In this document: positions 714-60,252 of the stretch, in pieces | Numbering within the stretch: position 1 is the stretch's first letter | Layout: each line of letters begins with the position of its first letter | Source of the DNA: Escherichia coli | GTDB taxonomy: Bacteria; Pseudomonadota; Gammaproteobacteria; Enterobacterales; Enterobacteriaceae | Assembly (NCBI RefSeq): GCF_013122565.1 | Contig: NZ_CP053258.1 | Length of the DNA: 64,000 nucleotides | Reading direction: 5' to 3' (one strand) | Notes under the pieces: generated by a model | Database searches by the model: none | The model's input: only the letters and a program-made list of their open reading frames with translations | What the model was told of the DNA's origin: nothing | Translations under genes and position numbers: made by a program

Positions 714-722
714 GGAAAATGA

Positions 723-1325
723 ATGGAAGCGCGAATTTCAACTGAACGGCATGTGCAGCGCCAGCAGAAATTGAAGGAACAGGTCGATACGCGCGTCGCG
801 GCGGCGATAGAGAAAAAAGGGATCTTGATTGTTTTCACCGGCAATGGCAAAGGGAAATCCACTGCCGCGTTTGGTACGGTGACGCGCGCGGTGGGTCATG
901 GCAAAACGGTGGGGGTTGCGCAGTACATCAAGGGGCAATGGGACAACGGCGAATACAACCTTCTCCAGCCGCTCGGGGTTGAGTTTCATATTATGGGAAC
1001 CGGTTTTACCTGGGAGACACAGAACCGGCAAGCGGATATCGACGCGGCGAAAGAGGTCTGGTCGGAAAGCAAACGGATGCTGGCTGACAAGCGTTACGAC
1101 TTAGTGGTGCTTGATGAGCTGACCTATATGCTGGCTTACCATTATCTGGATACCGAAGAAGTGATCGCTTCTCTGCAAAACCGCCCGGCACAACAAAGTG
1201 TCATTGTCACCGGACGCGGTTGCCACAGTCAGATATTAAAAATGGCGGATACGGTCAGCGAAATCCGCCCCGTCAAACATGCTTTTGATAACGGCATTCA
1301 GGCCCAGCCGGGTATCGACTGGTAA
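723..1325 (+). CDS. Cob(I)yrinic acid a,c-diamide / cob(I)alamin adenosyltransferase family protein (BtuR/CobO-like paralog)
   Basis: 200 aa with P-loop GNGKGKSTAAFG and strong similarity to E. coli BtuR as recalled (VFTGNGKGK, GFTWETQNR, VVLDELTYM, TGRGC, VSE-RPVKHAFD). AAGGA Shine-Dalgarno sits 6 nt upstream of the ATG and 9 bp after the fumarase stop. Confidence 0.8.
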   Translation: MEARISTERHVQRQQKLKEQVDTRVAAAIEKKGILIVFTGNGKGKSTAAFGTVTRAVGHGKTVGVAQYIKGQWDNGEYNLLQPLGVEFHIMGTGFTWETQNRQADIDAAKEVWSESKRMLADKRYDLVVLDELTYMLAYHYLDTEEVIASLQNRPAQQSVIVTGRGCHSQILKMADTVSEIRPVKHAFDNGIQAQPGIDW

Positions 1326-1328
1326 TAA

Positions 1329-1360
1329 CTGCGCCTGGCATCCCGCCAGGCGCAGGTTTT
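1329..1360. terminator. Bidirectional intrinsic terminator between the convergent CobO-like and LysR genes
   Basis: Perfect 11-bp inverted repeat CTGCGCCTGGC-atccc-GCCAGGCGCAG followed by GTTTT on the + strand and flanked by an A/T run for the opposite strand. Confidence 0.5.
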
Positions 1361-2264
1361 ACATCTCCTGCGGTACGACCGATTTCGCCAGCAACCATTC
1401 ACGAAATTGCTGCAAGTGCGGCGAGTCAGACTTCTCTTCCTGCCACGTCATAATAAAACGATTACCGGTACGAATAGGCACATCACAGGGAATCACCATA
1501 TCGCCACTATCCAAATCATGTTGAATAGCGAACCGTGGTAACAGCGCCACGCCGAGATTAGAGCGCACGGCGGCAATCAACATTGAAAGCAAATCGAAAC
1601 GTGGCCCGTTGTTGACCAGCGGACTGCTAACGCCAGATAAAGCAAACCACTCTTCCCAGCCAGTAATACGGGTGCTTTGATGCAGAAGTGGTAACTCAGT
1701 AAGCAGTTCTGCCACTGACAGTTTTTGATCGGACATTGCAAGCAAACTGCCGCTGCATACCGGCAAAATCTCCTCTTCAAAGAGATATTCTACTTCCGCC
1801 CAGGGCGCGCAAAAATTTTCGCGCATAATGACAGCATCGTACTCCCGATTAAGAAAATCGCCGTTATTAGCTAAAGAATGAATATTAACAATAATATCGG
1901 GATGTAACTTTGTGAATTCATGTAAATTTGGGATTAACCAGTGGGTACTAAAAGTAGGATTAACGGCAAGTTCAATAACCTGAACCGTAGGCTGCCAGGT
2001 CATAATGGTATTGGTATCGCGTTCCAGCTTATTTAATGTTTCTTTTACTATCCCCAGGTAATACTTCCCTGCATCATTAAGAAAAATACGTTTTTTAGAG
2101 TGTGAAAATAACGGAGTACGTAAAAATTCCTCCAGCGCACTTACTTGTCTGAATACTGCACTTTGGGTTAACGCTAACTCCTCTGCCGCTCTGGTATAAC
2201 TTTCATGACGTGCGACGACCTCAAAAGTCACCAGCAGTTCCGTTTTAGGTATTTTTCCTCGCAT
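1359..2264 (-). CDS. LysR-family transcriptional regulator
   Basis: N-terminal HTH region (LVTFEVVARHESYTRAAEELALTQSAVFRQVSALEEFL) and LysR-type substrate-binding C-terminus. Start chosen at MRGKIPKTELL (2264) rather than the longer track ORF starting at 2294. Confidence 0.8.
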   Translation of the reverse strand: MRGKIPKTELLVTFEVVARHESYTRAAEELALTQSAVFRQVSALEEFLRTPLFSHSKKRIFLNDAGKYYLGIVKETLNKLERDTNTIMTWQPTVQVIELAVNPTFSTHWLIPNLHEFTKLHPDIIVNIHSLANNGDFLNREYDAVIMRENFCAPWAEVEYLFEEEILPVCSGSLLAMSDQKLSVAELLTELPLLHQSTRITGWEEWFALSGVSSPLVNNGPRFDLLSMLIAAVRSNLGVALLPRFAIQHDLDSGDMVIPCDVPIRTGNRFIMTWQEEKSDSPHLQQFREWLLAKSVVPQEM

Positions 2265-2854
2265 AATGCCTTCCGTGAAAAAATAACAATTCAAAAAATT
2301 ATTTTATAAAAAACAGTAGCGCTAATGAATATCATAATTCAAATAAACAAACCAGTCAGCTATATGTCTAACCAGGAAAATAAAGTGACAATAATCCTAA
2401 AACAGGAATTTCACCTCAGTTATCCGCATGCAATGCTTTAAAGCCATTATTGCAAGAATATTATTCATATACATGAATATACTCTAAATAAGTCGAGTTG
2501 GAGGAAGGGAACAAATAATGAATTTCCAGAAGCTTACATAAGTAAGTGACCTGGGTGAGCGAACATCGATGCAGCACATGCAACTTGAATTATGACAAGT
2601 ATACAATGATAAATTTAGATACCCTATGTTATATATTATCTATGTCCGGTTAAATTGAATGAGTCATGGCCTTCAAAGACATCGCAAAAGATAATTTCTC
2701 TTTAACAATAAGCCAGATTTACCACTTGTAAAAATTGCTATCGCCACATACACTACGCGCGTTTTCTTTCCCTTTTGCTGGCTGCTGACCGGAAAGACAA
2801 AATTACCCTCGCAATACAGGGGGTTGTTTAACGTCTATATTTCAGGACAGCGTT

Positions 2855-4252
2855 ATGCATCATCTTTCAAGGCTTGATAAAGCCTTTCTGCGCAAAGGGA
2901 TCCAACTTTCCCGCGCCAACAATATTGTTTCATTATCTCGTCCATCAGGTGTCAGTGCCCGCGTACTGCTGCCAGACGAACTGCCGCTGGAAGAAAAAGC
3001 AGTAACACAACTGCTTGATTTTGCAGAAGTGAAGCTACCAGACCACCCAGGTTATGTACGCCAGACGTGTGCGACGCCAGATTTTCATCCCGGCAATGGC
3101 GTCCCCGTTGGCGCGGTGGTAGCCTCAACGCCGGATTTAGTCATTCCCGCCGCCATCGGCACCGATATTTCTTGTGGCATGCGGCTGCTGACGACCGGAA
3201 TAACACTTGAGCAAGCCGAAGCGCATAAAGACGTCATCACTCAGCGGTTAACGCAAGTGTTACTGCAAAATGAGCGCGATGTTCCGTTATCTGCACGAGC
3301 GTTCACCGCGCTTTTTGATGGCGGGCCGGCAGATTGCATGTCGGCCTTGCCATCAGCAGGTCTCTGGACACGCACGAATATCCCCCGAATGGTACAAGAG
3401 ATTGACCGCTGCATTGGGCTGAACGAGCATAAAAGTCATTCGCGTTATGCCCCACCCGCCCTGCTGGCAACGGACCGCGCATTACTCCGCGACCCTTGTC
3501 TGGGTACGCCGGGTTCAGGTAATCATTTTATTGAACTTCAGGTAGTTGATAGCGTGATCGATCGCCATGTAGCCTGGCAACAAGGGCTGAAAACAGGCGA
3601 TATCGTGGTGATGATCCATAGTGGATCGCGAGATGTCGGCTTTTACGTCGGACGACGCTGGACGGACCGTGCCCGCGCAGACTGGCCCGCTGGGCATAAA
3701 CATCCACAAAGCGGGTTATATGGTCTGGCTGGTGGACTGGCGGAGGAATATCTACAAGCGATGGGAATGGCGGCGCGTTACGCATGGTTAAATCGCGTGA
3801 CCATTACGGAAATGGTGCGCGTATGTTTTGCCGATTTATTCCATCAGGATGAATCACATCTGGTGGTGGATGTGCCGCATAACATCATCCTTCGCGAGCA
3901 TGAGATGAATATTCATCGCAAAGGCGCAACACCGGCACGTGCGGGCGATCTGGCGTTAATCCCCGGTTCAATGGGCGATTATTCGTGGCTTGCGGTAGGT
4001 TGCGGCAACCCGGAGTGGTTGTGGTCATGCAGTCACGGAGCAGGACGCAGCCAGCGTCGGCAGGCCATGCGCGCACACGCGACTGAAGAGTCAACGCTGC
4101 CGTGGCAATGCGTAACACTGCGTGAAGAACGGCGTATTGAGGAAGCGCCAGCTGCTTATAAAGATATTGGTCCGGTTATCGAAGCCCAACAAGAAGCTGG
4201 ATTAATTCAGCCAGCGGTCAGATTTCGACCGTGGTTAACGTTTAAGGCATAA
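2855..4252 (+). CDS. RtcB-family RNA ligase paralog (orphan)
   Basis: 465 aa with the RtcB signature motifs DISCGMR, GSGNHFIE, HSGSR, HN...HRKGA, IPGSMG and SHGAGR. Stop codon is immediately followed by the sucD 3' terminator palindrome. Confidence 0.8.
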   Translation: MHHLSRLDKAFLRKGIQLSRANNIVSLSRPSGVSARVLLPDELPLEEKAVTQLLDFAEVKLPDHPGYVRQTCATPDFHPGNGVPVGAVVASTPDLVIPAAIGTDISCGMRLLTTGITLEQAEAHKDVITQRLTQVLLQNERDVPLSARAFTALFDGGPADCMSALPSAGLWTRTNIPRMVQEIDRCIGLNEHKSHSRYAPPALLATDRALLRDPCLGTPGSGNHFIELQVVDSVIDRHVAWQQGLKTGDIVVMIHSGSRDVGFYVGRRWTDRARADWPAGHKHPQSGLYGLAGGLAEEYLQAMGMAARYAWLNRVTITEMVRVCFADLFHQDESHLVVDVPHNIILREHEMNIHRKGATPARAGDLALIPGSMGDYSWLAVGCGNPEWLWSCSHGAGRSQRRQAMRAHATEESTLPWQCVTLREERRIEEAPAAYKDIGPVIEAQQEAGLIQPAVRFRPWLTFKA

Positions 4253-6469: not shown

Positions 6470-6640
6470 CGTAGGCCTGATAAGACGCGTCAGCGTCGCA
6501 TCAGGCATCGCTTGTCGGATGCGGCGCGAGCGCCTTATCCGACCTACATCGGTGCTTCCCGTAGGCCTGATAAGACGCGTTAAGCGTCGCATCAGGCTTC
6601 AATGGCCGGAGAAGGCGATAATGCCTTATCCGGTCTACAG
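6470..6640. repeat. BIME / cluster of REP palindromes in the sucB-sucC intergenic region
   Basis: Several alternating-orientation REP units (GCCTGATGCGACGCT...CTTATCAGGCCTAC type, and GCCGGATGCGGCG...CTTATCCGACCTAC). Confidence 0.85.
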
Positions 6641-10873: not shown

Positions 10874-10992
10874 GCCTGATGCGCTGCGCTTATCAGGCCT
10901 ACGGGTAATGACGTGTAGGCCGGATAAGGCGTTCACGCCGCATCCGGCACTGGTTGCCTGATAAGACGCTTGAGCGTCTTATCAGGCCTACG
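10874..10992. repeat. REP cluster in the sdhB-sucA intergenic region
   Basis: Three REP units including two copies of CTTATCAGGCCTAC (10892-10902 and 10981-10991 contain ATCAGGCCTAC). Confidence 0.85.
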
Positions 10993-11726: not shown

Positions 11727-13493
11727 TTAGTAAGTACGAATCTTCGGCGGGAATGCCGGACGCAGTTTCGGTTCCATGTTGACGCTTCGGCGCGTCATGG
11801 ATTCCGACTCTGGCAGATACAGGGAGTGGCACAGCCAGTTTTCATCATCACGATCCGGGAAGTCGAAGCGGCTATGCGCGCCACGGCTTTCGGTACGGAA
11901 GTTGGCAGAAACAGCCGTTGCATACGCCGTTTCCATCAGGTTATCCAGTTCCAGGCACTCAACGCGCTGGGTGTTGAACTCGCTGGAAGTGTCATCCAGA
12001 CGGGCATTTTTCAGACGCTCGCGGATAACTTTCAACTGCTCAAGCCCTTTCGCCATCGCATCACCTTCACGGAAGACCGAGAAGTTATGCTGCATACATT
12101 CTTGCAGCGCTTTACGAATCGCCACCGGATCTTCACCGTTACGATTATTGTTCCAGCGGTTCAGACGATCCAGAGATGCTTCAACATCAGACTCGCTGGC
12201 ATCGCGCAATGCGCCCTGCTCGGCGATAGACTCTTGCAGATGCAGACCCGCTGCGCGACCAAAGACCACCAGGTCCAGCAGCGAGTTGCCGCCCAGACGG
12301 TTAGCACCGTGTACCGATACGCAGGCAATTTCACCTACCGCGAACAGCCCCGGAACAACCACATCTTCGCCTTTCTCATTCACAGTCAGCGCCTGACCGG
12401 TAACTTTGGTCGGAATACCGCCCATCATGTAGTGACAGGTTGGGATAACCGGAATCGGCTCTTTCACCGGATCAACGTGAGCAAAGGTACGGGAAAGCTC
12501 CAGGATACCCGGCAGACGGGATTCGAGAACTTCTTTACCCAGGTGATCGAGTTTCAGTTTCGCGTGTGGCCCCCACGGACCATCACAGCCGCGACCTTCA
12601 CGGATTTCAATCATGATGGAACGCGCCACCACATCACGGCCCGCCAGGTCTTTGGCGTTCGGCGCATAACGCTCCATAAAGCGTTCGCCATGTTTGTTCA
12701 GCAGATAACCGCCTTCACCACGGCAACCTTCGGTGACCAGTACGCCCGCACCGGCAATGCCGGTCGGGTGGAATTGCCACATTTCCATATCCTGCACCGG
12801 TACGCCTGCGCGGATAGCCATGCCGACACCGTCACCGGTGTTAATGTGGGCGTTAGTGGTGGACTGATAAATACGCCCTGCCCCGCCAGTCGCCAGCACG
12901 GTAGCGCGGGCTTTGAAATAAACCACTTCACCGGTTTCGATGCACAGTGCGGTACAACCCACCACCGCGCCATCCTGGTTTTTCACCAGATCCAGCGCAT
13001 ACCACTCGGAGAAAATGGTGGTGTGGTTTTTCAGGTTCTGCTGATAAAGCGTGTGCAACAGTGCGTGACCGGTACGGTCAGCCGCTGCCGCAGTGCGTGC
13101 CGCCTGCTCGCCGCCGAAGTTTTTCGACTGACCGCCAAACGGACGTTGATAGATACGACCATCATCGAGACGCGAGAACGGCAGGCCCATGTGTTCCAGT
13201 TCCAGAATCGCTTCCGGCCCGGTTTTACACATATATTCAATCGCGTCCTGGTCACCGATATAGTCCGACCCTTTCACGGTGTCGTACATATGCCATTCCC
13301 AGTTATCTTCATGGGTATTACCCAGCGCAACGGTAATGCCGCCTTGCGCAGAAACGGTATGGGAACGGGTCGGGAAGACTTTAGAGAGCAGCGCACAGGT
13401 CTGGCCGCTCTGGGAAATTTGCAGCGCCGCGCGCATACCTGCGCCGCCGGCACCAATCACAACTGCATCAAATTCTCTGACTGGCAATTTCAT
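11727..13493 (-). CDS. sdhA: Succinate dehydrogenase flavoprotein subunit
   Basis: Start trimmed to [24 protein letters not shown] (FAD-binding GxGxxG); 588 aa. Confidence 0.97.
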
Positions 13494-13840
13494 CACACAC
13501 CCCACACCACAACGAATCCATAAATCACGTAAACCACCAGTGCAACGACAATCACCAGTTGCAGCATCAGGCGCAAAGCCAGCGGTTTAACGTAGTCGGT
13601 CAACACCTGCCACATGCCGATCCAGGCATGGATCAAGATAGAAAACAGCGCCAGCAGGGTGAACACTTTGGTGAACGCAGAGGCGAAGAAACCGATCCAG
13701 ACTTCATATGTCAGTTCGCCACTGGTGGCGAAAAAACCGACCATATAAATGATGTAGAGCGTCAGGACGATAGCGGTAGCGCGAACGAGGATGAAATCAT
13801 GTACGCCATTGCGTCCTAATGCGGAGGCGTTGCTTACCAT
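13493..13840 (-). CDS. sdhD: Succinate dehydrogenase membrane anchor subunit
   Basis: 115 aa hydrophobic protein, [21 protein letters not shown]... Confidence 0.95.
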
Positions 13841-14223
13841 ACGAGGACTCCTGCGAGAAGTGAAAGCACGACAGTAATAACAAAGGAGATTTTGGCGGAG
13901 CGTTTACCCGCTTCGAATGTTTCTTCCAGATAGCCAAAATCCATCATCATGTGGCGAATACCTACGACGACGTGATACGCCAGAGCGGTAAGGATGCCCC
14001 ACATGATAAATTTGACGAAGAAGCTGCCCATAATCGCGGAAGCTTGCTCGAAACCTTCAGGGGAAGAGAGGCTGGTACCCAGAAGCCACAGCAGGATGCC
14101 CACAGCAACAAAGGTGATCACACCGGAAACGCGATGGAGAATGGACGCTATCGCCGTGATGGGGAACCGGATGGTCTGTAGGTCCAGATTAACAGGTCTT
14201 TGTTTTTTCACATTTCTTATCAT
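13834..14223 (-). CDS. sdhC: Succinate dehydrogenase cytochrome b556 subunit
   Basis: Start trimmed to [34 protein letters not shown] (129 aa). Confidence 0.95.
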
Positions 14224-14238
14224 GAATAACGCCCACAT

Positions 14239-14931
14239 GCTGTTCTTATTATTCCCTGGGGACTACGGGCACAGAGGTTAACTTTCTGTTACCTGGAGAC
14301 GTCGGGATTTCCTTCCTCCGGTCTGCTTGCGGGTCAGACAGCGTCCTTTCTATAACTGCGCGTCATGCAAAACACTGCTTCCAGATGCGAAAACGACACG
14401 TTACAACGCTGGGTGGCTCGGGATTGCAGGGTGTTCCGGAGACCTGGCGGCAGTATAGGCCGTTCACAAAATCATTACAATTAACCTACATATAGTTTGT
14501 CGGGTTTTATCCTGAACAGTGATCCAGGTCACGATAACAACATTTATTTAATTTTTAATCATCTAATTTGACAATCATTCAACAAAGTTGTTACAAACAT
14601 TACCAGGAAAAGCATATAATGCGTAAAAGTTATGAAGTCGGTATTTCACCTAAGATTAACTTATGTAACAGTGTGGAAGTATTGACCAATTCATTCGGGA
14701 CAGTTATTAGTGGTAGACAAGTTTAATAATTCGGATTGCTAAGTACTTGATTCGCCATTTATTCGTCATCAATGGATCCTTTACCTGCAAGCGCCCAGAG
14801 CTCTGTACCCAGGTTTTCCCCTCTTTCACAGAGCGGCGAGCCAAATAACAAACGGGTAAAGCCAGGTTGATGTGCGAAGGCAAATTTAAGTTCCGGCAGT
14901 CTTACGCAATAAGGCGCTAAGGAGACCTTAA
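14239..14931. promoter_or_regulatory. Divergent gltA / sdhCDAB-sucABCD control region
   Basis: 693-bp AT-rich intergenic region between divergent sdhC and gltA. By established knowledge it holds the gltA and sdhC promoters; individual sites are not resolved here. Confidence 0.5.
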
Positions 14932-16215
14932 ATGGCTGATACAAAAGCAAAACTCACCCTCAACGGGGACACAGCTGTTGAACTGGATGTGCTGAAAGGC
15001 ACGCTGGGTCAAGATGTTATTGATATCCGTACTCTCGGTTCAAAAGGTGTGTTCACCTTTGACCCAGGCTTCACTTCAACCGCATCCTGCGAATCTAAAA
15101 TTACTTTTATTGATGGTGATGAAGGTATTTTGCTGCACCGCGGTTTCCCGATCGATCAGCTGGCGACCGATTCTAACTACCTGGAAGTTTGTTACATCCT
15201 GCTGAATGGTGAAAAACCGACTCAGGAACAGTATGACGAATTTAAAACTACGGTGACCCGTCATACCATGATCCACGAGCAGATTACCCGTCTGTTCCAC
15301 GCTTTCCGTCGCGACTCACATCCAATGGCAGTCATGTGTGGTATTACCGGCGCGCTGGCGGCGTTCTATCACGACTCGCTGGATGTTAACAATCCTCGTC
15401 ATCGTGAAATTGCCGCGTTCCGCCTGCTGTCGAAAATGCCGACCATGGCAGCGATGTGTTACAAGTATTCCATTGGTCAGCCATTTGTTTATCCGCGCAA
15501 CGATCTCTCCTACGCCGGTAACTTCCTGAATATGATGTTCTCCACGCCGTGCGAACCGTATGAAGTTAATCCGATTCTGGAACGTGCTATGGACCGTATT
15601 CTGATCCTGCACGCTGACCATGAACAGAACGCCTCTACCTCCACCGTGCGTACTGCTGGCTCTTCGGGTGCGAACCCGTTTGCCTGTATCGCAGCAGGTA
15701 TTGCTTCACTGTGGGGACCTGCGCACGGTGGTGCTAACGAAGCGGCGCTGAAAATGCTGGAAGAAATCAGCTCCGTTAAACACATTCCGGAATTTGTTCG
15801 TCGTGCGAAAGACAAAAATGATTCTTTCCGCCTGATGGGCTTCGGTCACCGCGTGTACAAAAATTACGACCCGCGCGCCACCGTAATGCGTGAAACCTGC
15901 CATGAAGTGCTGAAAGAGCTGGGCACCAAAGATGACCTGCTGGAAGTGGCTATGGAGCTGGAAAACATCGCGCTGAACGACCCGTACTTTATCGAGAAGA
16001 AACTGTACCCGAACGTCGATTTCTACTCTGGTATCATCCTGAAAGCGATGGGTATTCCTTCTTCCATGTTCACCGTCATCTTCGCCATGGCCCGTACCGT
16101 TGGCTGGATCGCTCACTGGAGCGAAATGCACAGTGACGGCATGAAGATCGCCCGTCCGCGCCAGTTGTATACAGGATATGAAAAACGCGACTTTAAAAGC
16201 GATATCAAGCGTTAA
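14932..16215 (+). CDS. gltA: Citrate synthase
   Basis: 427 aa, [78 protein letters not shown]... Confidence 0.97.
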
Positions 16216-16606
16216 TGGTTGATTGCTAAGTTGTAAATATTTTAACCCGCTGTTCATATGGCGGGTTAATTTTTATATGCCTAAATACAAATATTTGTAA
16301 AAATAAAATCCACTATCGGATATCCATATATTTTTAATAAAAATATATCGGTATGAATTATAAACAGTTCAGTGAACTTTAATCACCTATATTCCTGTCA
16401 GTCACATGAATAAATCACCAAACATAGCGCACCCCTATAATTTCCAATGGTTTATTCATTAAACAATTAATTCACGACATCAATTAATTACTTTTACATT
16501 TAATAAAATTAATAATATTTTTAAGAAAAACTAAAAACATTCGACAATCAAATAAGATATTCTTGCACCGATATACCTTTTTTCTTTTCTGTTAAAGGAC
16601 TCTGTT

Positions 16607-17173
16607 ATGTTTAAAGGACAAAAAACATTGGCCGCACTGGCCGTATCTCTGCTGTTCACTGCACCTGTTTATGCAGCTGATGAAGGATCCGGTGAAATTC
16701 ACTTTAAAGGTGAGGTTATTGAAGCGCCTTGTGAAATACATCAGGATGATATTGATAAAGAAGTTGAACTCGGTCAGGTGACCACCAGCCACATTAATCA
16801 AACTCATCACAGCGATGCCGTTGCTGTCGACCTGCGCTTGGTGAATTGCGATTTGGAAAACTCCAACAACGGTTCCGGTGACAAGATTTCTAAAGTTGCA
16901 GTCACCTTTGATAGCTCAGCGAAAACCACCGGCGCAGATCCGATTCTCAACAACACCAGCACGGGTGAAGCCACCGGCGTCGGCGTGCGTTTATTGAATA
17001 AAAATCAAACCAATATCGTTTTAGGCACCGCTGCTCCAGACATCGACCTGGCTCCGACCTCCAGCGAGCAAACGCTGAATTTCTTTGCCTGGATGGAACA
17101 AATTGATCAGGCAACACCAGTAACGCCAGGTGCAGTTACGGCGAATGCAACCTACGTGCTGGATTATAAATAA
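16607..17173 (+). CDS. ybgD: Fimbrial subunit (chaperone-usher fimbriae)
   Basis: 188 aa with signal peptide (MFKGQKTLAALAVSLLFTAPVYA) and fimbrial subunit C-terminal Y-x-L-x-Y-K-like pattern. Confidence 0.85.
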   Translation: MFKGQKTLAALAVSLLFTAPVYAADEGSGEIHFKGEVIEAPCEIHQDDIDKEVELGQVTTSHINQTHHSDAVAVDLRLVNCDLENSNNGSGDKISKVAVTFDSSAKTTGADPILNNTSTGEATGVGVRLLNKNQTNIVLGTAAPDIDLAPTSSEQTLNFFAWMEQIDQATPVTPGAVTANATYVLDYK

Positions 17174-17223
17174 GTATTACTTTGGCGGCGCTATCGCCGC
17201 CTTTCTTCAAATATTTATCAGGT

Positions 17224-19683
17224 ATGGACACCGTGAATATTTATCGACTCTCTTTTGTATCCTGCCTGGTCATGGCGATGCCTTCCGCATTAGCGGTCGA
17301 ATTCAACCTGAATGTCCTCGATAAATCGATGCGCGATCGTATTGATATATCATTATTAAAGGAAAAAGGTGTCATTGCTCCAGGCGAATATTTTGTTAGC
17401 GTTGCGGTAAATAATAACCAAATCAGTAACGGGCAAAAGATTAACTGGCAAAAAAATGACGATAAAACCATTCCGTGCATCAATGATTTACTGGTCGATA
17501 AATTTGGCTTAAAACCTGAAGTCCGTCAGTCGTTACCATTGATAAATCAGTGCATCGATTTTAGCTCCCGACCTGAAATGCTCTTCAATTTTGATCAGGC
17601 CAGTCAGCAACTGAATATCACCATTCCGCAGGCCTGGCTGGCGTGGCACTCAGATAACTGGACCCCACCCTCCACATGGAAAGAAGGTGTCGCCGGTGTC
17701 CTGATGGATTACAACTTGTTTGCTAGCAGCTACCGCCCACAGAATGGCAGCAGCAGCACTAATCTTAACGCCTACGGAACAGCAGGAATCAACACGGGGG
17801 CATGGCGCTTACGCAGTGATTACCAGTTGAATCAGACGGATAGCGATGATGACCATGAACAGTCAGGCGAAATATCACGTACCTATCTTTTTCGCCCGTT
17901 ACCGCAATTAGGTTCAAAATTAACCCTCGGCGAAACGGATTTTAGTTCCAATATTTTCGACGGTTTTTCTTATACCGGTGCGGCACTGGCGAGTGACGAT
18001 CGAATGTTGCCATGGGAACTACGCGGCTACGCTCCACAAATTAGCGGTATTGCACAGACCAATGCCACGGTGACGATCAGTCAATCAGGCCGCGTCATTT
18101 ACCAGAAAAAAGTCACACCAGGTCCGTTTATCATTGATGACCTTAATCAGTCCGTCCAGGGAACGCTGGATGTCAAAGTAACGGAAGAAGATGGTCGGGT
18201 GAACAATTTCCAGGTTTCGGCAGCATCGACGCCCTTCCTGACTCGCCAGGGACAGGTTCGCTATAAACTGGCCGCGGGTCAGCCACGGCCTTCCATGTCA
18301 CATCAAACTGAAAATGAAACCTTTTTTAGCAATGAAGTTTCCTGGGGGATGCTCTCCAACACCTCGCTGTACGGCGGCCTGCTGATTTCGGGTGATGACT
18401 ACCATTCTGCCGCAATGGGTATCGGGCAAAATATGCTGTGGCTTGGCGCGCTGTCGTTTGATGTCACCTGGGCCAGTAGCCATTTTGATACTCAGCAGGA
18501 CGAGCGGGGCTTAAGCTACCGATTTAACTACAGCAAACAAGTGGATACCACCAACAGCACGATTTCACTTGCCGCTTATCGTTTCTCCGATCGTCATTTT
18601 CACAGCTACGCCAACTATCTGGATCACAAATACAACGACAGCGATGCGCAGGACGAAAAACAGACAATCAGCTTATCCGTAGGCCAACCGATTACCCCAC
18701 TAAACCTCAATCTTTACGCCAACCTGTTGCATCAAACCTGGTGGAATGCAGACGCCTCCACGACCGCCAACATCACGGCAGGTTTTAATGTTGATATTGG
18801 TGACTGGAGAGATATCTCGATTTCGACGTCATTCAATACAACCCATTACGAAGATAAAGATCGCGATAACCAGATTTACCTGTCGATTTCGCTCCCCTTC
18901 GGTAACGGTGGCCGGGTTGGCTATGACATGCAAAACAGTAGCCACAGCACCACACACCGCATGTCGTGGAACGATACGCTGGATGAACGTAATAGCTGGG
19001 GCATGTCTGCCGGACTGCAATCCGACCGTCCGGACAGTGGAGCCCAGGTGAGCGGTAACTATCAGCACCTGAGTTCAGCGGGTGAGTGGGATATTTCTGG
19101 TACCTATGCCGCCAATGATTACAGTTCTGTAAGCAGCAGCTGGAGCGGTTCTTTCACCGCAACCCAATATGGTGCAGCGTTTCATCGCCGCAGCTCCACC
19201 AATGAACCACGCCTGATGGTCAGCACCGATGGCGTGGCAGATATTCCGGTTCAGGGCAATCTCGACTACACCAACCATTTTGGCATTGCGGTGGTGCCGT
19301 TGATTTCCAGTTACCAGCCTTCCACCGTGGCGGTGAACATGAATGACTTACCCGACGGCGTAACAGTTGCAGAAAACGTTATCAAAGAAACGTGGATTGA
19401 AGGCGCAATAGGTTACAAATCACTGGCTTCCCGTTCCGGTAAAGACGTTAACGTCATCATTCGCAACGCCAGCGGTCAGTTCCCTCCCCTCGGTGCGGAT
19501 ATCCGCCAGGATGACAGCGGCATTAGCGTGGGGATGGTTGGCGAGGAAGGACACGCCTGGTTAAGCGGAGTCGCTGAAAATCAAAAGTTTACCGTGGTCT
19601 GGGGTGATAGTCAGCGTTGCTCGATCCATCTTCCTGAACATATGGAAGACACCGCAAATCGCCTGATTTTACCTTGTCATTAA
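17224..19683 (+). CDS. ybgQ: Fimbrial outer-membrane usher
   Basis: About 820 aa, usher-family size and composition; start chosen at MDTVNIYRLSFVSCLVMAMPSALA. Confidence 0.85.
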   Translation: MDTVNIYRLSFVSCLVMAMPSALAVEFNLNVLDKSMRDRIDISLLKEKGVIAPGEYFVSVAVNNNQISNGQKINWQKNDDKTIPCINDLLVDKFGLKPEVRQSLPLINQCIDFSSRPEMLFNFDQASQQLNITIPQAWLAWHSDNWTPPSTWKEGVAGVLMDYNLFASSYRPQNGSSSTNLNAYGTAGINTGAWRLRSDYQLNQTDSDDDHEQSGEISRTYLFRPLPQLGSKLTLGETDFSSNIFDGFSYTGAALASDDRMLPWELRGYAPQISGIAQTNATVTISQSGRVIYQKKVTPGPFIIDDLNQSVQGTLDVKVTEEDGRVNNFQVSAASTPFLTRQGQVRYKLAAGQPRPSMSHQTENETFFSNEVSWGMLSNTSLYGGLLISGDDYHSAAMGIGQNMLWLGALSFDVTWASSHFDTQQDERGLSYRFNYSKQVDTTNSTISLAAYRFSDRHFHSYANYLDHKYNDSDAQDEKQTISLSVGQPITPLNLNLYANLLHQTWWNADASTTANITAGFNVDIGDWRDISISTSFNTTHYEDKDRDNQIYLSISLPFGNGGRVGYDMQNSSHSTTHRMSWNDTLDERNSWGMSAGLQSDRPDSGAQVSGNYQHLSSAGEWDISGTYAANDYSSVSSSWSGSFTATQYGAAFHRRSSTNEPRLMVSTDGVADIPVQGNLDYTNHFGIAVVPLISSYQPSTVAVNMNDLPDGVTVAENVIKETWIEGAIGYKSLASRSGKDVNVIIRNASGQFPPLGADIRQDDSGISVGMVGEEGHAWLSGVAENQKFTVVWGDSQRCSIHLPEHMEDTANRLILPCH

Positions 19684-19697
19684 TTAAGGAAATGAAA

Positions 19698-20429
19698 ATG
19701 ACATTTATGAAAGGACTTCCCCTTTTGTTGTTGGTAGCCAGTCTGTGCAGCCACGCAGCACTACAACCCGATCGTACTCGTATTGTGTTTAACGCTAATG
19801 ATAAAGCTACCAGTCTGCGAGTAGATAATCGTAGCGATAAACTCCCCTACCTCGCTTATTCCTGGCTCGAAAATGAAAAAGGGGAGAAAAGCGACGATCT
19901 TCTGGTCGCCCTGCCACCGATACAACGTCTGGAACCGAAAGCAACAACGCAGGTGCGGATAGTCAAGCAAGCCTCGACCGCGAAATTACCGGGCGATCGC
20001 GAAACGCTATTTTTCTACAATATACGTGAAATTCCTCCCGCCCCGGAAAAAAACAGCGACCATGCCGTTCTGCAGGTCGCCATCCAGAGCCGTATCAAGG
20101 TGTTCTGGCGACCGTCTGCGTTACGCAAGAAAGCAGGGGAAAAGGTCGAACTGCAGTTACAGGTCAGCCAGAATGGCAACCAACTTAGCTTAAAAAACCC
20201 GACCGGCTATTATCTGACAATCGCCTACCTGGGACGAAATGAGCAAGGCGTTCTCCCCGGCTTCAAAACCGTGATAGTTGCACCTTTTAGTACGGTCAGC
20301 ACTAATACCGGAAGCTATAGCGGCAGCCAGTTTTATCTCGGTTATATGGATGATTACGGCGCGTTACGCATGACGACGCTCAATTGTAGCGGACAATGCC
20401 GTTTACAAGCCGTGGAGGCGAAGAAATGA
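19698..20429 (+). CDS. ybgP: Fimbrial periplasmic chaperone
   Basis: About 243 aa PapD-like chaperone with signal peptide ([20 protein letters not shown]). Confidence 0.85.
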
Positions 20430-30299: not shown

Positions 30300-30400
30300 T
30301 ACTGCTCCTGAACGGTTTACAGGAGTAAGTGTAGACGGCGAAAAGAAAAAAACCGCCAGCGTTTCCACTAGCGGTTTTCAATGTATTCAAAACTCAGCAA

Positions 30401-34761: not shown

Positions 34762-35334
34762 ATGAGTGGATTACGTCCGGCATTATCGACATTTATCTTT
34801 CTGTTATTGATTACTGGCGGCGTTTACCCGCTGCTGACCACCGTGCTGGGGCAATGGTGGTTTCCCTGGCAGGCCAACGGTTCGTTGATCCGTGAAGGTG
34901 ATACAGTGCGGGGTTCGGCATTAATCGGGCAGAATTTTACTGGCAACGGCTATTTTCATGGTCGCCCGTCGGCAACGGCAGAAATGCCCTATAATCCACA
35001 GGCTTCTGGCGGGAGCAATCTGGCGGTCAGTAACCCTGAGCTGGATAAACTAATAGCCGCACGCATTGCGGCATTACGGGCCGCTAACCCGGATGCCAGC
35101 GCGAGCGTTCCGGTTGAACTGGTGACGGCGTCGGCAAGCGGGCTGGACAATAACATAACCCCGCAAGCGGCGGCCTGGCAAATCCCACGCGTGGCGAAAG
35201 CGCGTAATCTCAGCGTTGAACAGCTCACGCAACTGATCGCAAAATACAGCCAACAACCGCTGGTGAAATATATCGGCCAGCCGGTCGTCAACATTGTTGA
35301 ACTCAATCTGGCGCTGGATAAGCTTGATGAATAA
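34762..35334 (+). CDS. kdpC: K+-transporting ATPase subunit C
   Basis: Start trimmed to [27 protein letters not shown] (190 aa). Confidence 0.95.
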
Positions 35335-38011
35335 CGAACCCTTACGTCCCGACCCCGACCGTCTGCTGGAACAAACTGCCGCGCCGCATCGGGGGAAGCT
35401 GAAAGTTTTCTTCGGTGCCTGTGCAGGCGTCGGGAAGACCTGGGCGATGCTGGCAGAAGCCCAGCGACTGCGGGCGCAAGGGCTGGATATTGTGGTTGGC
35501 GTGGTAGAAACCCACGGGCGAAAAGATACCGCCGCCATGCTGGAAGGGCTGGCTGTTCTGCCGTTAAAACGCCAGGCGTACCGTGGGCGGCATATCAGCG
35601 AGTTTGATCTCGATGCCGCCCTCGCCCGCCGCCCGGCGCTGATCTTAATGGACGAACTGGCGCACAGTAATGCGCCAGGTTCTCGTCATCCTAAACGCTG
35701 GCAGGATATCGAAGAACTGCTGGAAGCTGGCATTGATGTTTTCACAACCGTCAACGTTCAGCATCTGGAAAGTCTGAATGATGTGGTCAGCGGCGTCACC
35801 GGAATTCAGGTACGGGAAACCGTGCCCGATCCTTTTTTCGATGCCGCCGACGACGTGGTTCTGGTGGACTTGCCCCCGGACGATCTGCGCCAGCGGCTGA
35901 AAGAAGGCAAAGTCTATATTGCCGGGCAGGCGGAGCGCGCCATTGAACATTTTTTCCGCAAAGGCAATCTGATCGCCCTGCGCGAACTGGCACTGCGCCG
36001 TACTGCTGATCGCGTTGATGAGCAAATGCGCGCCTGGCGGGGGCATCCTGGCGAAGAGAAAGTGTGGCACACGCGCGACGCGATCCTTTTATGCATCGGC
36101 CATAACACCGGCAGCGAAAAACTGGTCCGCGCAGCGGCGCGGCTGGCGTCACGGCTGGGTAGCGTCTGGCACGCGGTGTATGTTGAAACCCCTGCCCTGC
36201 ATCGCTTACCGGAGAAAAAACGTCGGGCAATTCTCAGCGCCTTACGTCTGGCGCAGGAGCTGGGCGCGGAGACGGCAACACTTTCTGATCCAGCGGAAGA
36301 GAAAGCGGTAGTGCGTTATGCCCGTGAACATAATCTCGGCAAGATTATTCTCGGTCGCCCAGCCTCGCGCCGCTGGTGGCGTCGGGAAACGTTTGCTGAC
36401 CGACTGGCGCGCATCGCTCCCGATCTCGATCAGGTGCTGGTCGCGCTTGATGAACCACCCGTCCGCACGATTAACAACGCGCCGGATAGCCGCTCTTTTA
36501 AAGACAAGTGGCGGGTACAGATTCAGGGATGCGTGGTTGCCGCCGCGTTATGCGCCGTTATCACCTTAATTGCTATGCAGTGGCTGATGGCGTTTGATGC
36601 CGCCAACCTGGTGATGCTGTATCTGCTTGGCGTGGTGGTGGTCGCGCTATTTTATGGACGCTGGCCTTCGGTGGTTGCTACCGTCATTAATGTGGTGAGT
36701 TTCGATCTCTTTTTTATCGCCCCACGCGGCACGCTCGCCGTCTCTGATGTGCAATATCTGCTGACCTTCGCGGTGATGTTAACCGTCGGGCTGGTGATCG
36801 GGAACCTTACTGCGGGTGTGCGTTATCAGGCGCGGGTAGCCCGTTACCGCGAGCAACGCACACGGCACTTATATGAAATGTCGAAAGCTCTGGCGGTGGG
36901 CCGCAGTTCGCAGGACATCGCCGCCACCAGCGAACAATTTATTGCCTCCACGTTTCATGCCCGCAGTCAGGTGTTGTTGCCCGATGACAACGGTAAATTG
37001 CAGCCGTTAACACATCCGCAAGGAATGACGCCGTGGGACGATGCCATCGCGCAGTGGAGTTTTGATAAAGGCCTGCCTGCGGGTGCGGGCACCGACACGT
37101 TACCCGGCGTGCCGTACCAGATTTTGCCGTTAAAAAGCGGTGAGAAAACCTACGGGCTGGTGGTGGTGGAACCGGGGAATCTGCGTCAGTTGATGATCCC
37201 GGAACAGCAGCGCCTGCTGGAGACGTTTACGCTGTTAGTCGCCAATGCGCTTGAGCGGCTGACGCTGACCGCCAGCGAAGAACAGGCGCGGATGGCAAGC
37301 GAACGGGAACAGATCCGCAACGCCCTGCTGGCGGCGCTTTCGCATGATTTACGCACTCCGCTTACGGTGCTGTTCGGTCAGGCAGAAATCTTAACGCTCG
37401 ATCTGGCAAGCGAAGGATCGCCCCACGCCCGCCAGGCCAGCGAGATCCGTCAGCACGTGCTGAACACTACCCGACTGGTGAATAATCTACTGGATATGGC
37501 GCGAATTCAGTCCGGCGGCTTTAATTTGAAGAAAGAGTGGTTAACGCTGGAAGAAGTAGTCGGCAGCGCGCTGCAAATGCTGGAACCGGGTTTATCGTCG
37601 CCCATCAATCTTTCTCTGCCAGAACCGCTGACCTTAATCCACGTTGACGGGCCACTCTTTGAACGGGTGCTGATTAATCTGCTGGAGAACGCGGTGAAAT
37701 ACGCGGGTGCGCAGGCCGAAATTGGGATCGATGCCCACGTTGAGGGCGAAAATCTACAACTGGATGTCTGGGATAACGGCCCCGGTCTTCCGCCAGGCCA
37801 GGAGCAGACGATATTTGATAAGTTTGCTCGCGGGAATAAAGAGTCGGCAGTACCGGGGGTAGGGCTTGGGCTGGCAATTTGTCGGGCGATAGTGGATGTA
37901 CACGGGGGCACTATTACCGCGTTCAACCGACCGGAAGGTGGTGCCTGTTTTCGTGTTACACTTCCCCAGCAAACCGCTCCTGAACTTGAAGACTTTCATG
38001 AGGATATGTGA
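35327..38011 (+). CDS. kdpD: Sensor histidine kinase KdpD
   Basis: Start trimmed to [41 protein letters not shown] (894 aa); Walker A, USP domain, four TM helices, HisKA (LSHDLRTPL) and HATPase domains. Confidence 0.97.
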
Positions 38012-38685
38012 CAAACGTTCTGATTGTTGAAGATGAACAGGCTATTCGTCGCTTTCTGCGCACGGCGCTGGAGGGCGACGGTATGCGCGTCTTTGAGGCC
38101 GAAACGCTGCAACGCGGCTTGCTGGAAGCGGCAACCCGTAAGCCAGATTTGATTATTCTCGATCTCGGCCTGCCCGACGGTGATGGGATTGAGTTTATCC
38201 GCGACCTGCGCCAGTGGAGCGCGGTGCCGGTGATTGTGCTTTCCGCACGCAGCGAAGAGAGCGACAAAATCGCCGCGCTGGATGCCGGAGCGGATGATTA
38301 TCTGAGTAAGCCGTTTGGCATTGGCGAATTGCAGGCCCGTCTGCGCGTCGCATTACGCCGCCACTCTGCCACCACCGCGCCCGATCCGCTGGTGAAATTT
38401 TCCGATGTTACCGTCGATTTAGCCGCCCGCGTGATCCATCGCGGTGAGGAAGAGGTGCATCTCACCCCGATTGAGTTTCGCCTGCTGGCAGTGCTGCTCA
38501 ACAACGCCGGAAAAGTACTCACCCAGCGCCAGTTACTCAATCAGGTGTGGGGGCCAAACGCGGTCGAACACAGTCACTATTTGCGTATTTATATGGGACA
38601 TCTGCGACAAAAACTGGAACAGGATCCCACTCGCCCCCGCCATTTCATTACTGAAACCGGTATTGGGTATCGGTTTATGCTTTGA
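38008..38685 (+). CDS. kdpE: Response regulator KdpE (OmpR family)
   Basis: 225 aa; receiver domain (ILDLGLPDGDG) and winged-helix output; 4-bp overlap with kdpD. Confidence 0.97.
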   Translation: MTNVLIVEDEQAIRRFLRTALEGDGMRVFEAETLQRGLLEAATRKPDLIILDLGLPDGDGIEFIRDLRQWSAVPVIVLSARSEESDKIAALDAGADDYLSKPFGIGELQARLRVALRRHSATTAPDPLVKFSDVTVDLAARVIHRGEEEVHLTPIEFRLLAVLLNNAGKVLTQRQLLNQVWGPNAVEHSHYLRIYMGHLRQKLEQDPTRPRHFITETGIGYRFML

Positions 38686-38808
38686 AAAAAGTGGCAATGT
38701 ATGGATAAAGTCATTTTTTATTCAAATATAAGGAACTTAATATTTAAAAAATGTTCCATACAATTCCTCATCATAAATGACACCGTAGCACACAAGGAGC
38801 AAGTAGCG

Positions 38809-39459
38809 ATGCGTGAAATAAATCAGTTAGTAAATACTGAAGATTCAGCCTGGCCAATAATCCAGAACTGGTTAAAAGACGCCACAAACCATACCGAACT
38901 CTTACCGGTTAATAAAGATTTAGCCGAAACCGCACTTTATCAATTACAGGTGACAACAAAATCACCGATGGGTGCGCTTGTCTATGGCTCCGGAGGTCTA
39001 CTGATTGATAATGGTTGGTTACGCATAGCAGGCTCTGGTCACCCCCGGTTGCCACGAGATCCAGTAAGTTGGACACAACGCCCTGAATTCGCAGGCGTGC
39101 GGGCTTTACCCATCGCTGACGATGTCGCAGGGGGAATTTTTGCTCTTAATGGTGGCGATCTTGGGGAAGATACTGGCTGCGTTTATTATTTTGCGCCAGA
39201 TACGCTGAATTGGGAAAGTCTGGAAGTTGGATATTCTGAGTTTCTTCAGTGGGCATTATCCGGTGATTTAGATACCTTCTATGAAAATGTACGATGGCAG
39301 CAATGGCGAGAAGACGTAATAAAATTATCGGCAACGGAAGCCTTCACGTTCTACCCTTTCTTATGGGTACAAAGTGAAGAAGCAAGAACAAGAAAAGTTA
39401 TTTCGCTTACTGAACTCTGGGAAATGCAGTATCAAATGAAAGAAACATTCACTCAATAA
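38809..39459 (+). CDS. Hypothetical protein, probably the intact counterpart of K-12 ybfG
   Basis: 216-aa ORF starting MREINQLVNTEDSAWPIIQNW with AAGGAG Shine-Dalgarno; position between kdpE and ybfP. The ybfG assignment is from positional memory only. Confidence 0.55.
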   Translation: MREINQLVNTEDSAWPIIQNWLKDATNHTELLPVNKDLAETALYQLQVTTKSPMGALVYGSGGLLIDNGWLRIAGSGHPRLPRDPVSWTQRPEFAGVRALPIADDVAGGIFALNGGDLGEDTGCVYYFAPDTLNWESLEVGYSEFLQWALSGDLDTFYENVRWQQWREDVIKLSATEAFTFYPFLWVQSEEARTRKVISLTELWEMQYQMKETFTQ

Positions 39460-39499
39460 GACATGTTCAGGTCCGGGTTTCATTCCCGGACTCACTATT

Positions 39500-39994
39500 T
39501 TAATGTGTGTTTATCGCTTTCAATTCTTGCTGGCATTTTTCTGACTGGCAGCGTCGCAACTCAATAATCCCGACATGCATCATCGAGCCAAAAAATCCGC
39601 TTTCGCTGACATAATCCTCATTGACTATCGGTCGAGTGCCGGGCTTGCCCTGGCAAACCCGCATAAAAAATGAGGTGTAGCATTGCCAACCGGGATTTAA
39701 ACCGACCTTTTCTTGTGCTGACATATCGTGAAGATAAGTAAGTTCTTTTTCGTTCCCGCCTGACAACTGCCAGCTGCGGGTATTATCAGGTAAGTTATCG
39801 CCACGGCAATTTGTCTTACACCGGGAAGGTGCAATATTTACCGCAATGCTACCCGTTAATCCTCTGGTTTTATCTTTAGGGGTCAGTAACCAGTCGCCAG
39901 CTAATGATGATTGTTCAGGTTGGGCGCATGCAGTCAGCAGTAATGTGGCGGTAATTAGTGACACTATGACGACCAGACTCCTGTTGGTCTTCAT
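39500..39994 (-). CDS. ybfP: Lipoprotein
   Basis: 164 aa with signal peptide and lipobox (LLLTAC). Confidence 0.85.
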   Translation of the reverse strand: MKTNRSLVVIVSLITATLLLTACAQPEQSSLAGDWLLTPKDKTRGLTGSIAVNIAPSRCKTNCRGDNLPDNTRSWQLSGGNEKELTYLHDMSAQEKVGLNPGWQCYTSFFMRVCQGKPGTRPIVNEDYVSESGFFGSMMHVGIIELRRCQSEKCQQELKAINTH

Positions 39995-40043
39995 TGGGAT
40001 TTCCTTGAGCTACTCAGTTTGTTGACAAAGTGTTCGTTGTTTT

Positions 40044-40142
40044 TGCCGGATGCGGCGTGAACGCCTTATCCGGCCTACAAAATCGCGTAAATTCAATATA
40101 TTGCACCATCCTCGTAGGCCTGATAAGCGTAGCGCATCAGGC
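40044..40142. repeat. REP pair (BIME) between ybfP and pgm
   Basis: GCCGGATGCGGCGTGAACGCCTTATCCGGCCTAC and the inverted unit GTAGGCCTGATAAGCGTAGCGCATCAGGC. Confidence 0.85.
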
Positions 40143-40208
40143 AATTCTGTGTTTGTCATACGTAAAAAAGGGCGATCTTCTGACCGCCCTTTTTCTTATT
40201 TAATGTGT

Positions 40209-41849
40209 TTACGCGTTTTTCAGAACTTCACTAACAATCTCAACCGCTTCTTTCTCGATCTGCTTGCGATGTTCTTCACCGAGGAAGCTTTCGCAATAAA
40301 TCTTGTACGCGTCTTCCGTGCCTGACGGACGCGCGGCGAACCAGCCGTTGTCAGTCATCACTTTCAGACCGCCGATAGAAGCACCGTTGCCCGGTGCCGC
40401 CGTCAGGCGCGCGGTGATCGGGTCGCCTGCCAGGGTGCTGGCGCTCACCATTTCCGGAGACAGCTTAGACAGCGCCGCTTTTTGTGCGGAAGTCGCAGCT
40501 GCCTGCAAACGGTTGTAGCTCGGCGCACCAAAGCGTTTTGCCAGTTCGTTGTAGTGTTCCTGCGGATTCTTACCGGTGACAGCGGTGATTTCCGCCGCCA
40601 GCAGACACATGATGATGCCGTCTTTGTCGGTGGACCATGGCGTGCCGTCGAAACGCAGGAAGGAAGCCCCTGCGCTCTCTTCGCCGCCAAAGCCGAAGCT
40701 GCCGTCGAACAGACCATCAACAAACCATTTGAAACCTACCGGGACTTCTACCAGCTTACGGCCCAAGTCATTGACCACACGGTCGATCATCGCAGAAGAA
40801 ACCAGCGTTTTACCGACAGCAACATCTTTGCCCCACTGCGGACGATGCTGGAACAGGTAGTTGATCGCCACCGCCAGGTAGTGGTTCGGATTCATCAAAC
40901 CTGCCGGAGTGACGATACCGTGACGGTCATAATCCGGGTCGTTAGCAAACGCCAGATCGAACTTATCACGCAGTGCCAGCAGGCCCGCCATCGCACACTC
41001 GGAGGAGCAGTCCATACGGATCGCGCCGTCTTTATCAAGGTGCATAAAGCGGAACGTTTGATCGACCTGATCGTTAACGATAGTCAGGTTGAGGTTGTAA
41101 TACTCGCCAATACGCTTCCAGTATTCGATACCGGAACCGCCCAGCGGATCAACGCCAAGCGTCAGGCCCGCCTTCTGAATCGCCGCCATATCAACGATAT
41201 CGGCCAGCCCTTCCACGAACGGCTGCACCAGATCCTGCTCTTTCACATGACCGGATGCCATCGCTTCGTCGAGGGAGATACGCTTCACGCCTTTCAGGCC
41301 ATCGGCCAGCAGTGCGTTGGCACGATCTTCCACCACTTTAGTGACGTTGGTATCAGCCGGGCCACCATTTGGCGGATTGTACTTGATACCACCATCTTCC
41401 GGCGGGTTATGGGACGGTGTAATCACGATACCGTCTGCCAGCGGGCCACCTTTTTTATTGTGAACCAGGATGGCATTGGAAACGGCAGGCGTCGGGGTGA
41501 AGCCATTGTTTTCCTGCACAATAACATCTACGCCGTTCGCTGCCAGCACTTCCAGAACGGAAATAAATGCAGGTTCGGACAGGGCGTGAGTATCTTTACC
41601 CACATAGCAAGGGCCAGTGATGCCGTTTTTCGCACGTTCTTCAGCAATTGCCTGAGCGATCGCCAGAATGTGCGGCTCGTTAAAGCTGTGGCGCGCTGCA
41701 CTGCCACGGTGACCGGAAGTACCGAATTTCACCGCGTGCTCCGCATTCCCTGCTTCTGGTTTCAGTACATAATATTGCGCCGTCAGTTGGGCGACGTTAA
41801 TCAAATCACTCTGTTGTGCAGGTTGGCCTGCACGATTGTGGATTGCCAT
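40209..41849 (-). CDS. pgm: Phosphoglucomutase
   Basis: Start trimmed to [28 protein letters not shown] (546 aa); active-site TPSHNP motif present. Confidence 0.97.
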
Positions 41850-55756: not shown

Positions 55757-55854
55757 GCCTGATGCGCTACGCTTATCAGGCCTACGCAGCTCCTGCAATA
55801 TATTGAATTTTCATGCTTTTGTAGGCCGGATAAGGCGTTCACGCCGCATCCGGC
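55757..55854. repeat. REP pair (BIME) between nagD and asnB
   Basis: GCCTGATGCGCTACGCTTATCAGGCCTAC and inverted GTAGGCCGGATAAGGCGTTCACGCCGCATCCGGC. Confidence 0.85.
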
Positions 55855-58967: not shown

Positions 58968-60191
<1,224 letters not shown>

Positions 60192-60192
60192 C

Positions 60193-60252
<60 letters not shown>

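Follow-up and report, generated by a model that had tools for sequence, protein, structure and literature searches.

Loss of the speFL-speF-potE operon beside kdpE in an Escherichia coli strain, probably by recombination of the 3′ end of kdpE with its partial copy ybfI

The window analysed here is a 64,000 nt (64 kb) stretch of the genome of an Escherichia coli strain. Its central part includes the 3′ portion of the kdpFABCDE operon. The gene for the sensor kinase KdpD (35327..38011, plus strand; start set by the 894-aa length in RefSeq) is followed by an intact kdpE (38008..38685, plus strand), which encodes a response regulator of 225 aa with the Pfam domains Response_reg and Trans_reg_C. 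The kdpD-kdpE segment is 98.0-98.2% identical to that of K-12-type strains (98.1% for K-12 itself), and KdpE is 99.6% identical to the K-12 protein at the amino-acid level. The 3′ end of kdpE (38542..38686, plus strand) is the lone remaining copy of a 145-bp repeat, whose second, decayed copy, ybfI, resides upstream of ybfG in undeleted strains. A 123-bp AT-rich spacer (38686..38808, plus strand), which is the native upstream region of ybfG and is identical to the K-12 spacer, leads to an intact ybfG (38809..39459, plus strand). This gene encodes a 216-aa DUF2625 protein with a predicted SUKH/Tdi-like fold; its ATG at 38809 comes 9 nt after a Shine-Dalgarno sequence, AAGGAG, at 38794-38799. 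A terminator-like hairpin (39470..39492, plus strand) separates ybfG from the convergent ybfP (39500..39994, minus strand), an ORF without a Pfam family that encodes a lipoprotein with the lipobox LLTAC. The conserved right flank is pgm, for phosphoglucomutase (40209..41849, minus strand), and a REP-like sequence lies between ybfP and pgm at about 40031-40146.

A preliminary description of this DNA had given the order kdpE, 123 bp, an intact 216-aa ORF with a good Shine-Dalgarno sequence, and ybfP, and its coordinates proved exact to the base. It had also remarked on the absence of speF-potE, which is borne out within the 64-kb window: tblastn with the K-12 SpeFL, SpeF and PotE proteins found no match there, nor did blastn with the complete K-12 cassette of 4.2 kb. 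An Rfam search at the kdpE-ybfG locus returned nothing. The K-12 arrangement that it gave for comparison is likewise correct, the full order being kdpE-speFL-speF-potE-[kdpE 3′ fragment]-ybfG (with an internal stop)-ybfP-pgm.

The bracketed fragment is annotated in K-12 as a 135-nt ‘winged helix-turn-helix’ pseudogene between potE and ybfG, and we take it to be the ybfI of the K-12 annotation. ybfI, situated just upstream of ybfG, is a decayed duplicate of the final 145 bp of kdpE. With the 3′ end of kdpE it forms a pair of imperfect direct repeats that share about 90% identity and enclose the 4.3-kb speFL-speF-potE segment. The repeats are spaced 4,335 bp apart in K-12 and also flank the cassette in four other loci that we compared (L003, L005, L013 and L014). 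Relative to kdpE, ybfI carries both synonymous and nonsynonymous substitutions, as well as a stop and a frameshift. We considered ybfI as a functional foreign kdpE and rejected this idea, because the mix of substitutions, the stop and the frameshift indicate decay. A donor with a DUF2625 gene placed directly after kdpE would account for ybfI, but no such arrangement was seen in five distant DUF2625 contexts or in about 35 enterobacterial kdpE-speF loci.

The junction in the window is a hybrid of the two repeat environments. Five sites (38549, 38553, 38575, 38588 and 38634) are fixed differences, at which all examined kdpE sequences differ from all examined ybfI copies, and at each of them the window repeat is of the kdpE type. 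The same holds for each of the 15 sites at which it differs from K-12 ybfI, the last of which is 38646. From 38687 on, there is not one mismatch in 123 nt to the spacer that lies downstream of ybfI in K-12. The contrast between 15 mismatches in 145 positions of the repeat and 0 in 123 positions of the spacer is significant (Fisher p=7.5e-5), and it is also reflected in overall identity, which is 89.7% between the window repeat and ybfI compared with 99.2-99.5% between spacer plus ybfG and K-12-type strains. Between the two regimes, at 38647-38686, lies the longest block of perfect identity shared by the repeats (40 bp). The junction is free of filler DNA, IS elements and target duplications. 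Such a sharp switch from kdpE-type sequence to the ybfI flank is the signature of a crossover between the repeats.

We therefore consider it very probable, judging from this pattern of sequence, that speFL-speF-potE was lost by recombination between the 3′ end of kdpE and ybfI. The starting point would have been a K-12-like arrangement, kdpE-speFL-speF-potE-ybfI-ybfG-ybfP-pgm, in which the approximately 90%-identical direct repeats paired and a crossover took place in the terminal 40-bp identity block (38647..38686). This event would have removed 4,335 bp by K-12 spacing, comprising the kdp terminator, speFL, speF, potE and the potE terminator, and would have fused an intact kdpE seamlessly to the native upstream spacer of ybfG. 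The placement of the crossover derives from the SNP pattern within the 145-bp repeat and assumes that the parental ybfI was of the K-12 type. The exchange itself was presumably either RecA-dependent or the product of slippage. Of the two origins offered in the preliminary description, clean deletion thus stands, and recombination between the kdpE 3′ end and ybfI can be assigned as its mechanism.

A junction that coincides with repeats can also be produced during assembly, if the 145-bp repeats are collapsed and the intervening 4.3 kb are dropped. The 40-bp exact block shared by the repeats does exceed some assembly k-mers, but outside this block the repeats are only about 90% identical. Moreover, a 29-kb Logan contig (L004), built by a second assembler from run SRR11451224, crosses the junction unbroken and is 100% identical to the window over 9.3 kb (9,261 bp); this exact repetition argues against an assembly artefact, with the reservation that the run is possibly the window's own read set. 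Other Logan contigs (L005) carry speF-potE through both repeats uncollapsed, and the complete genome of strain CUWW10 shows the same type of junction. We regard an artefact as very improbable.

The kdpE stop codon forms the boundary of every structural allele that we saw at this locus (window 38683-38690; L101 3180-3200; L102 3180-3200). The boundary takes three forms. TGA|A continues either into the speFL side or into the ybfG spacer, and in O169:H41- and B1.H1.1-type alleles CTT TAG|G runs directly into a REP element. The end of the gene seems to be a hot spot for rearrangement.

The other origin proposed in the preliminary description was that speF-potE had never been acquired in this lineage. 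The window would then preserve an ancestral empty site, and K-12-type strains would have gained the operon beside kdpE later, creating the repeat in the process. Campbell-type insertion through homology with the 3′ end of kdpE would also yield flanking direct repeats, and the site before insertion would resemble the window. The distance of the window from sequenced relatives is compatible with such an early branch, as the best matches among 5,426 complete E. coli genomes are 98.3% identical on the kdp side, 99.0% on the pgm side and 98.7% in sdh-ybgQ (12000-20000), and an undeleted close relative of the window lineage is absent from this set. The distribution of the operon, however, speaks against an empty site. 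The order kdpE-speF-potE-pgm is common to more than 25 Enterobacteriaceae genera or species; in the form kdpD-kdpE-speF-potE-pgm-seqA, lacking ybfG and ybfP, it is found in E. albertii, several Citrobacter, Enterobacter, Kluyvera, Lelliottia, Leclercia, Atlantibacter, Cedecea and Trabulsiella. E. coli O157:H7 has the simple kdpE-speF-potE-pgm order too, without the ybf module. From this conserved order it follows that speF-potE next to kdpE is ancestral. Its wide conservation makes the operon older than E. coli, and by the same comparison of gene orders the ybfI-ybfG-ybfP module, which about one third of complete E. coli genomes carry, is the insertion and is specific to E. coli.

The alleles of the module point in the same direction. 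E. coli has a second class of ybfI-ybfG-ybfP alleles, with about 3-5% nucleotide difference (L013/L014 9001-9399). The ybfG of this class is annotated as a truncated product of 132 aa, which indicates that the gene has decayed independently in lineages besides K-12, and ybfI has an extra 1-bp deletion. The window ybfG and ybfP are 99.2-99.5% and 98.6% identical, respectively, to the K-12-type alleles, but only 96.8% and 94.9% identical to those of the second class. Nevertheless, the second class has ybfI with the same decay mutations: W>stop, H>N and I>N are common to copies from both module alleles, deeply diverged as these are, and the duplication must therefore predate both. As the window alleles are closer to the K-12 type than to the second ybfI-bearing class, the window is nested within the carriers of the duplication rather than basal to them. 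Its ybfG and ybfP belong to one ybfI-bearing allele class, so its ancestor had ybfI and the present arrangement is secondary. Given this nesting, and the conservation of kdpE-speF-potE-pgm across Enterobacteriaceae and most E. coli, the proposal that the operon was never acquired does not hold, and an ancestral empty site is scarcely credible.

Somewhat less improbable, yet still unlikely, is that recombination between strains was involved, either because imported ybfI-ybfG-pgm DNA paired non-allelically with the 3′ end of the recipient's kdpE or because a ready-deleted allele was transferred. The two flanks do have different nearest relatives: genomes of the O55:H7/O157:H7 type come nearest on the kdp side (98.3% identity) and another set of genomes on the pgm side (99.0%), and for ybfG the K-12-type strains reach 99.2-99.5%. 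Normal variation in divergence from gene to gene can account for this difference, however, and the 5,426 genomes contain no near-identical donor for either flank, nor can an import tract be delimited. A deletion that was imported, or was made during import by non-allelic recombination, would give an identical junction, and both the end product and the repeat-based mechanism would be the same as for deletion from a K-12-like arrangement, which we continue to prefer.

A 100% match to the kdpE-ybfG region occurs only in Logan run SRR11451224, and by these comparisons the window lineage is poorly represented among finished genomes. The remainder of the window diverges from K-12 in several other places. 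Identity to K-12 amounts to only about 96% from sucD to dtpD (4243-30337) and to about 94% in ybgA-phr. Positions 1-4243, which contain a Fumerase_C ORF and genes for a BtuR/CobO-type corrinoid adenosyltransferase, a LysR regulator and an RtcB RNA ligase, have no counterpart beside sucD in K-12, where mngR-mngA-mngB sits. Between ybfA and ybgA, the K-12 rhsC element and ISAs1 remnants (9.6 kb, KLY 728426-737993) are absent and replaced by about 9 bp (30337-30347). The window holds a single IS in its 64 kb, which makes a Shigella lineage less likely. This IS is a copy of IS621, an IS110-family element with a bridge-RNA-guided recombinase (58971-60247; transposase ORF 59162-60142, plus strand), located between the Gln/Met/Leu tRNA cluster and ubiF, where K-12 has no insertion. 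Its transposase matches the PDB entry 8wt6, ‘IS621 transposase’, with 727.8 bits over all 326 residues, and the roughly 190 nt of non-coding sequence upstream of the ORF is where we would expect the bridge RNA to lie. Rfam matches in the window comprise naRNA4 (CssrE; two copies) and ES036 (CssrF), at 6474-6544 (minus strand), 10918-10988 (plus strand) and 55778-55820 (minus strand); we take both to be REP-derived sRNA families.

The product of the intact ybfG belongs to a defined protein family. Against the Pfam profile PF10946 (DUF2625), the window protein scores 292.2 bits (E=1.8e-87; cutoff 27), and its residues 4-202 align to profile positions 1-206 of 207, a match to the full length of the family. 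It retains 25 of 25 invariant columns in a 51-sequence alignment, and the exact protein is present in RefSeq as WP_152913856.1. Spacer and ybfG together (773 bp) are 99.2% identical to K-12 at the nucleotide level, and the position is orthologous, extending from the kdpE-derived repeat to the convergent ybfP-pgm. The 216-aa ORF is the orthologue of ybfG, by position and by near-identity, and a DUF2625 protein over its full length.

The preliminary description had also supposed that ybfG in K-12 is the decayed version of a real gene, and this turns out to be so. The changes that set the K-12 gene apart from the window protein are I4M, G108V and a single TGG>TAG substitution at W70, a residue that is near-invariant in the DUF2625 family. 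Among the 1,648 genomes with the ybfG segment, the exact K-12 sequence around codon 70 occurs in only 364, and those sampled are K-12-type strains, for the most part laboratory derivatives; the other 1,284 differ around this codon, all that were sampled doing so at one base, consistent with TGG. On these sequence counts, an intact ybfG is the norm, and the K-12 ‘pseudogene’ is a one-codon knockout of an accessory gene that most carriers retain intact.

The closest full-length relatives of YbfG outside E. coli are only about 45-57% identical and come from scattered taxa. A literature search found no papers on DUF2625, and ybfG appeared only in expression tables. A confident AlphaFold model of YbfG (pLDDT 93.7, built from 51 sequences) is predicted to have the alpha+beta fold that defines SUKH proteins. 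A sub-threshold match to SMI1_KNR4 (E=0.052, 14.6 bits, below the cutoff of 25.4) agrees with this fold, although at the level of sequence it leaves YbfG outside the named SUKH family, and a search of PDB sequences with its profile gave nothing significant. The structures compared with it, 8g0k, 8fzz and 6itw, we group as Tdi immunity proteins to Ntox15 (Tde) T6SS DNases together with the SUKH superfamily. These and the related YobK and SMI1/KNR4 are only 10-14% identical to YbfG in sequence. Tdi proteins neutralize Ntox15 DNases and often occur as orphans (PMC10470768).

No toxin gene adjoins the DUF2625 gene in the window or in the five other DUF2625 contexts that were inspected. In Flavobacterium the gene is accompanied by SUFU and DUF2314, and in Citrobacter by DUF596 and small ORFs; in Yersinia it resides on a mobile island, in Kosakonia it stands without a toxin gene, and in Burkholderia the surroundings are housekeeping-like. 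As none of these contexts offers an adjacent toxin, it is the predicted fold that points to membership in an immunity class, and we propose only tentatively that YbfG might be a stand-alone immunity protein of the SUKH/Tdi type.

Its neighbour YbfP is a cysteine-rich lipoprotein of 164 aa. No homologues below 60% identity were found; those whose source is named are all from E. coli, and the rest are on metagenome contigs. The AlphaFold model of YbfP is unusable (pLDDT 34, 6 sequences).

The spacer between kdpE and ybfG carries a sigmaE-type motif, GGAACTT at 38732-38738 followed after 16 nt by TCCAT at 38755-38759. In the definition used, a −35 element GGAACTT is combined with a TCAAA-like −10 element at about 16-nt spacing, and TCCAT agrees with the latter at 3 of 5 positions. 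Matches to sigma70 promoters in the spacer were no more numerous than in shuffled controls. In K-12 a sigmaE promoter of ybfG has been mapped by RACE (PMC1312014), and ybfH-ybfG are induced 3.9- and 25-fold by sigmaE (PMC2731931). The motif in the spacer may correspond to this K-12 promoter, as judged from the motif and from the identity of the two spacers.

Both terminator-like hairpins of the K-12-like arrangement, one after kdpE and the other after potE, lie inside the deleted segment, and no terminator-like hairpin is found between kdpE and ybfG in the window. With both terminators removed, transcription of the kdp operon may read through into ybfG. A broader reading of the module can be assembled from these elements: in an E. 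coli-specific ybfI-ybfG-ybfP module, YbfG would be an orphan Tdi-like (SUKH) immunity protein against the Ntox15-type DNases of competitors, induced through sigmaE by envelope stress, with K-12 a natural amber knockout and the present strain one in which the gene, terminator-less behind kdp, is also coupled to potassium limitation. As a whole we think this reading unlikely to be right, but it provides a testable hypothesis on the function of DUF2625, namely that of an orphan immunity protein of the SUKH/Tdi-like type belonging to the sigmaE regulon.

The loss of the operon has a more immediate implication. Judged from the gene content of the window, the functions of the acid-inducible ornithine decarboxylase and of the putrescine/ornithine antiporter have presumably been lost in this strain. 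A strain with the deletion allele should lack both the inducible decarboxylase and the antiporter, which matters for biochemical typing and for physiology at low pH.

Loss of speF-potE is uncommon in the species. At least 80% of the speF-potE sequence is present in 5,038 of the 5,426 complete E. coli genomes (about 93%), and 295 have no match at all. A junction query placed kdpE within about 850 bp of pgm in 354 genomes, and those that lack speF-potE mostly carry other deletions that draw kdpE close to pgm. In B1.H1.1, for example, only ybfP is retained of the ybf module, and in O169:H41 kdpE is followed by a REP element and then pgm, ybfG and ybfP being gone as well. Adjacency of kdpE and ybfG was found in only four of the complete genomes.

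Compared with the K-12 locus (b0688-b0694 region), the window has the same flanking genes in the same order and lacks 4,335 bp (speFL, speF, potE and two terminators) and one copy of the repeat, while its ybfG is intact in contrast to the K-12 gene with TAG at codon 70. The arrangement is an ordinary strain-level deletion with a clear mechanism and not a new type of system, and public genomes already include annotations for each of its components. Its main value is as a worked example of how the 145-bp ybfI fragment can serve E. coli as an inbuilt recombination substrate through which an operon for acid stress and polyamines is lost repeatedly. Three of the four genomes with kdpE next to ybfG, E. 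coli ET846, MB10 and KL53, have lost the operon through IS1, which, unlike in the window, occupies the kdpE-ybfG junction. The fourth, E. coli CUWW10 (NZ_CP182145.1, RefSeq complete), resembles the window in having a scar-free kdpE-ybfG-ybfP-pgm order with the 123-bp spacer and an intact DUF2625 gene. Its KdpE protein, however, is that of K-12, its kdpE differs from the window gene at 19 nt, and its crossover lies 3′ of a GGC/GGG site, in a 19-bp block. With a kdpE product identical to that of K-12 and a different crossover site, the deletion in CUWW10 is independent of the one in the window.
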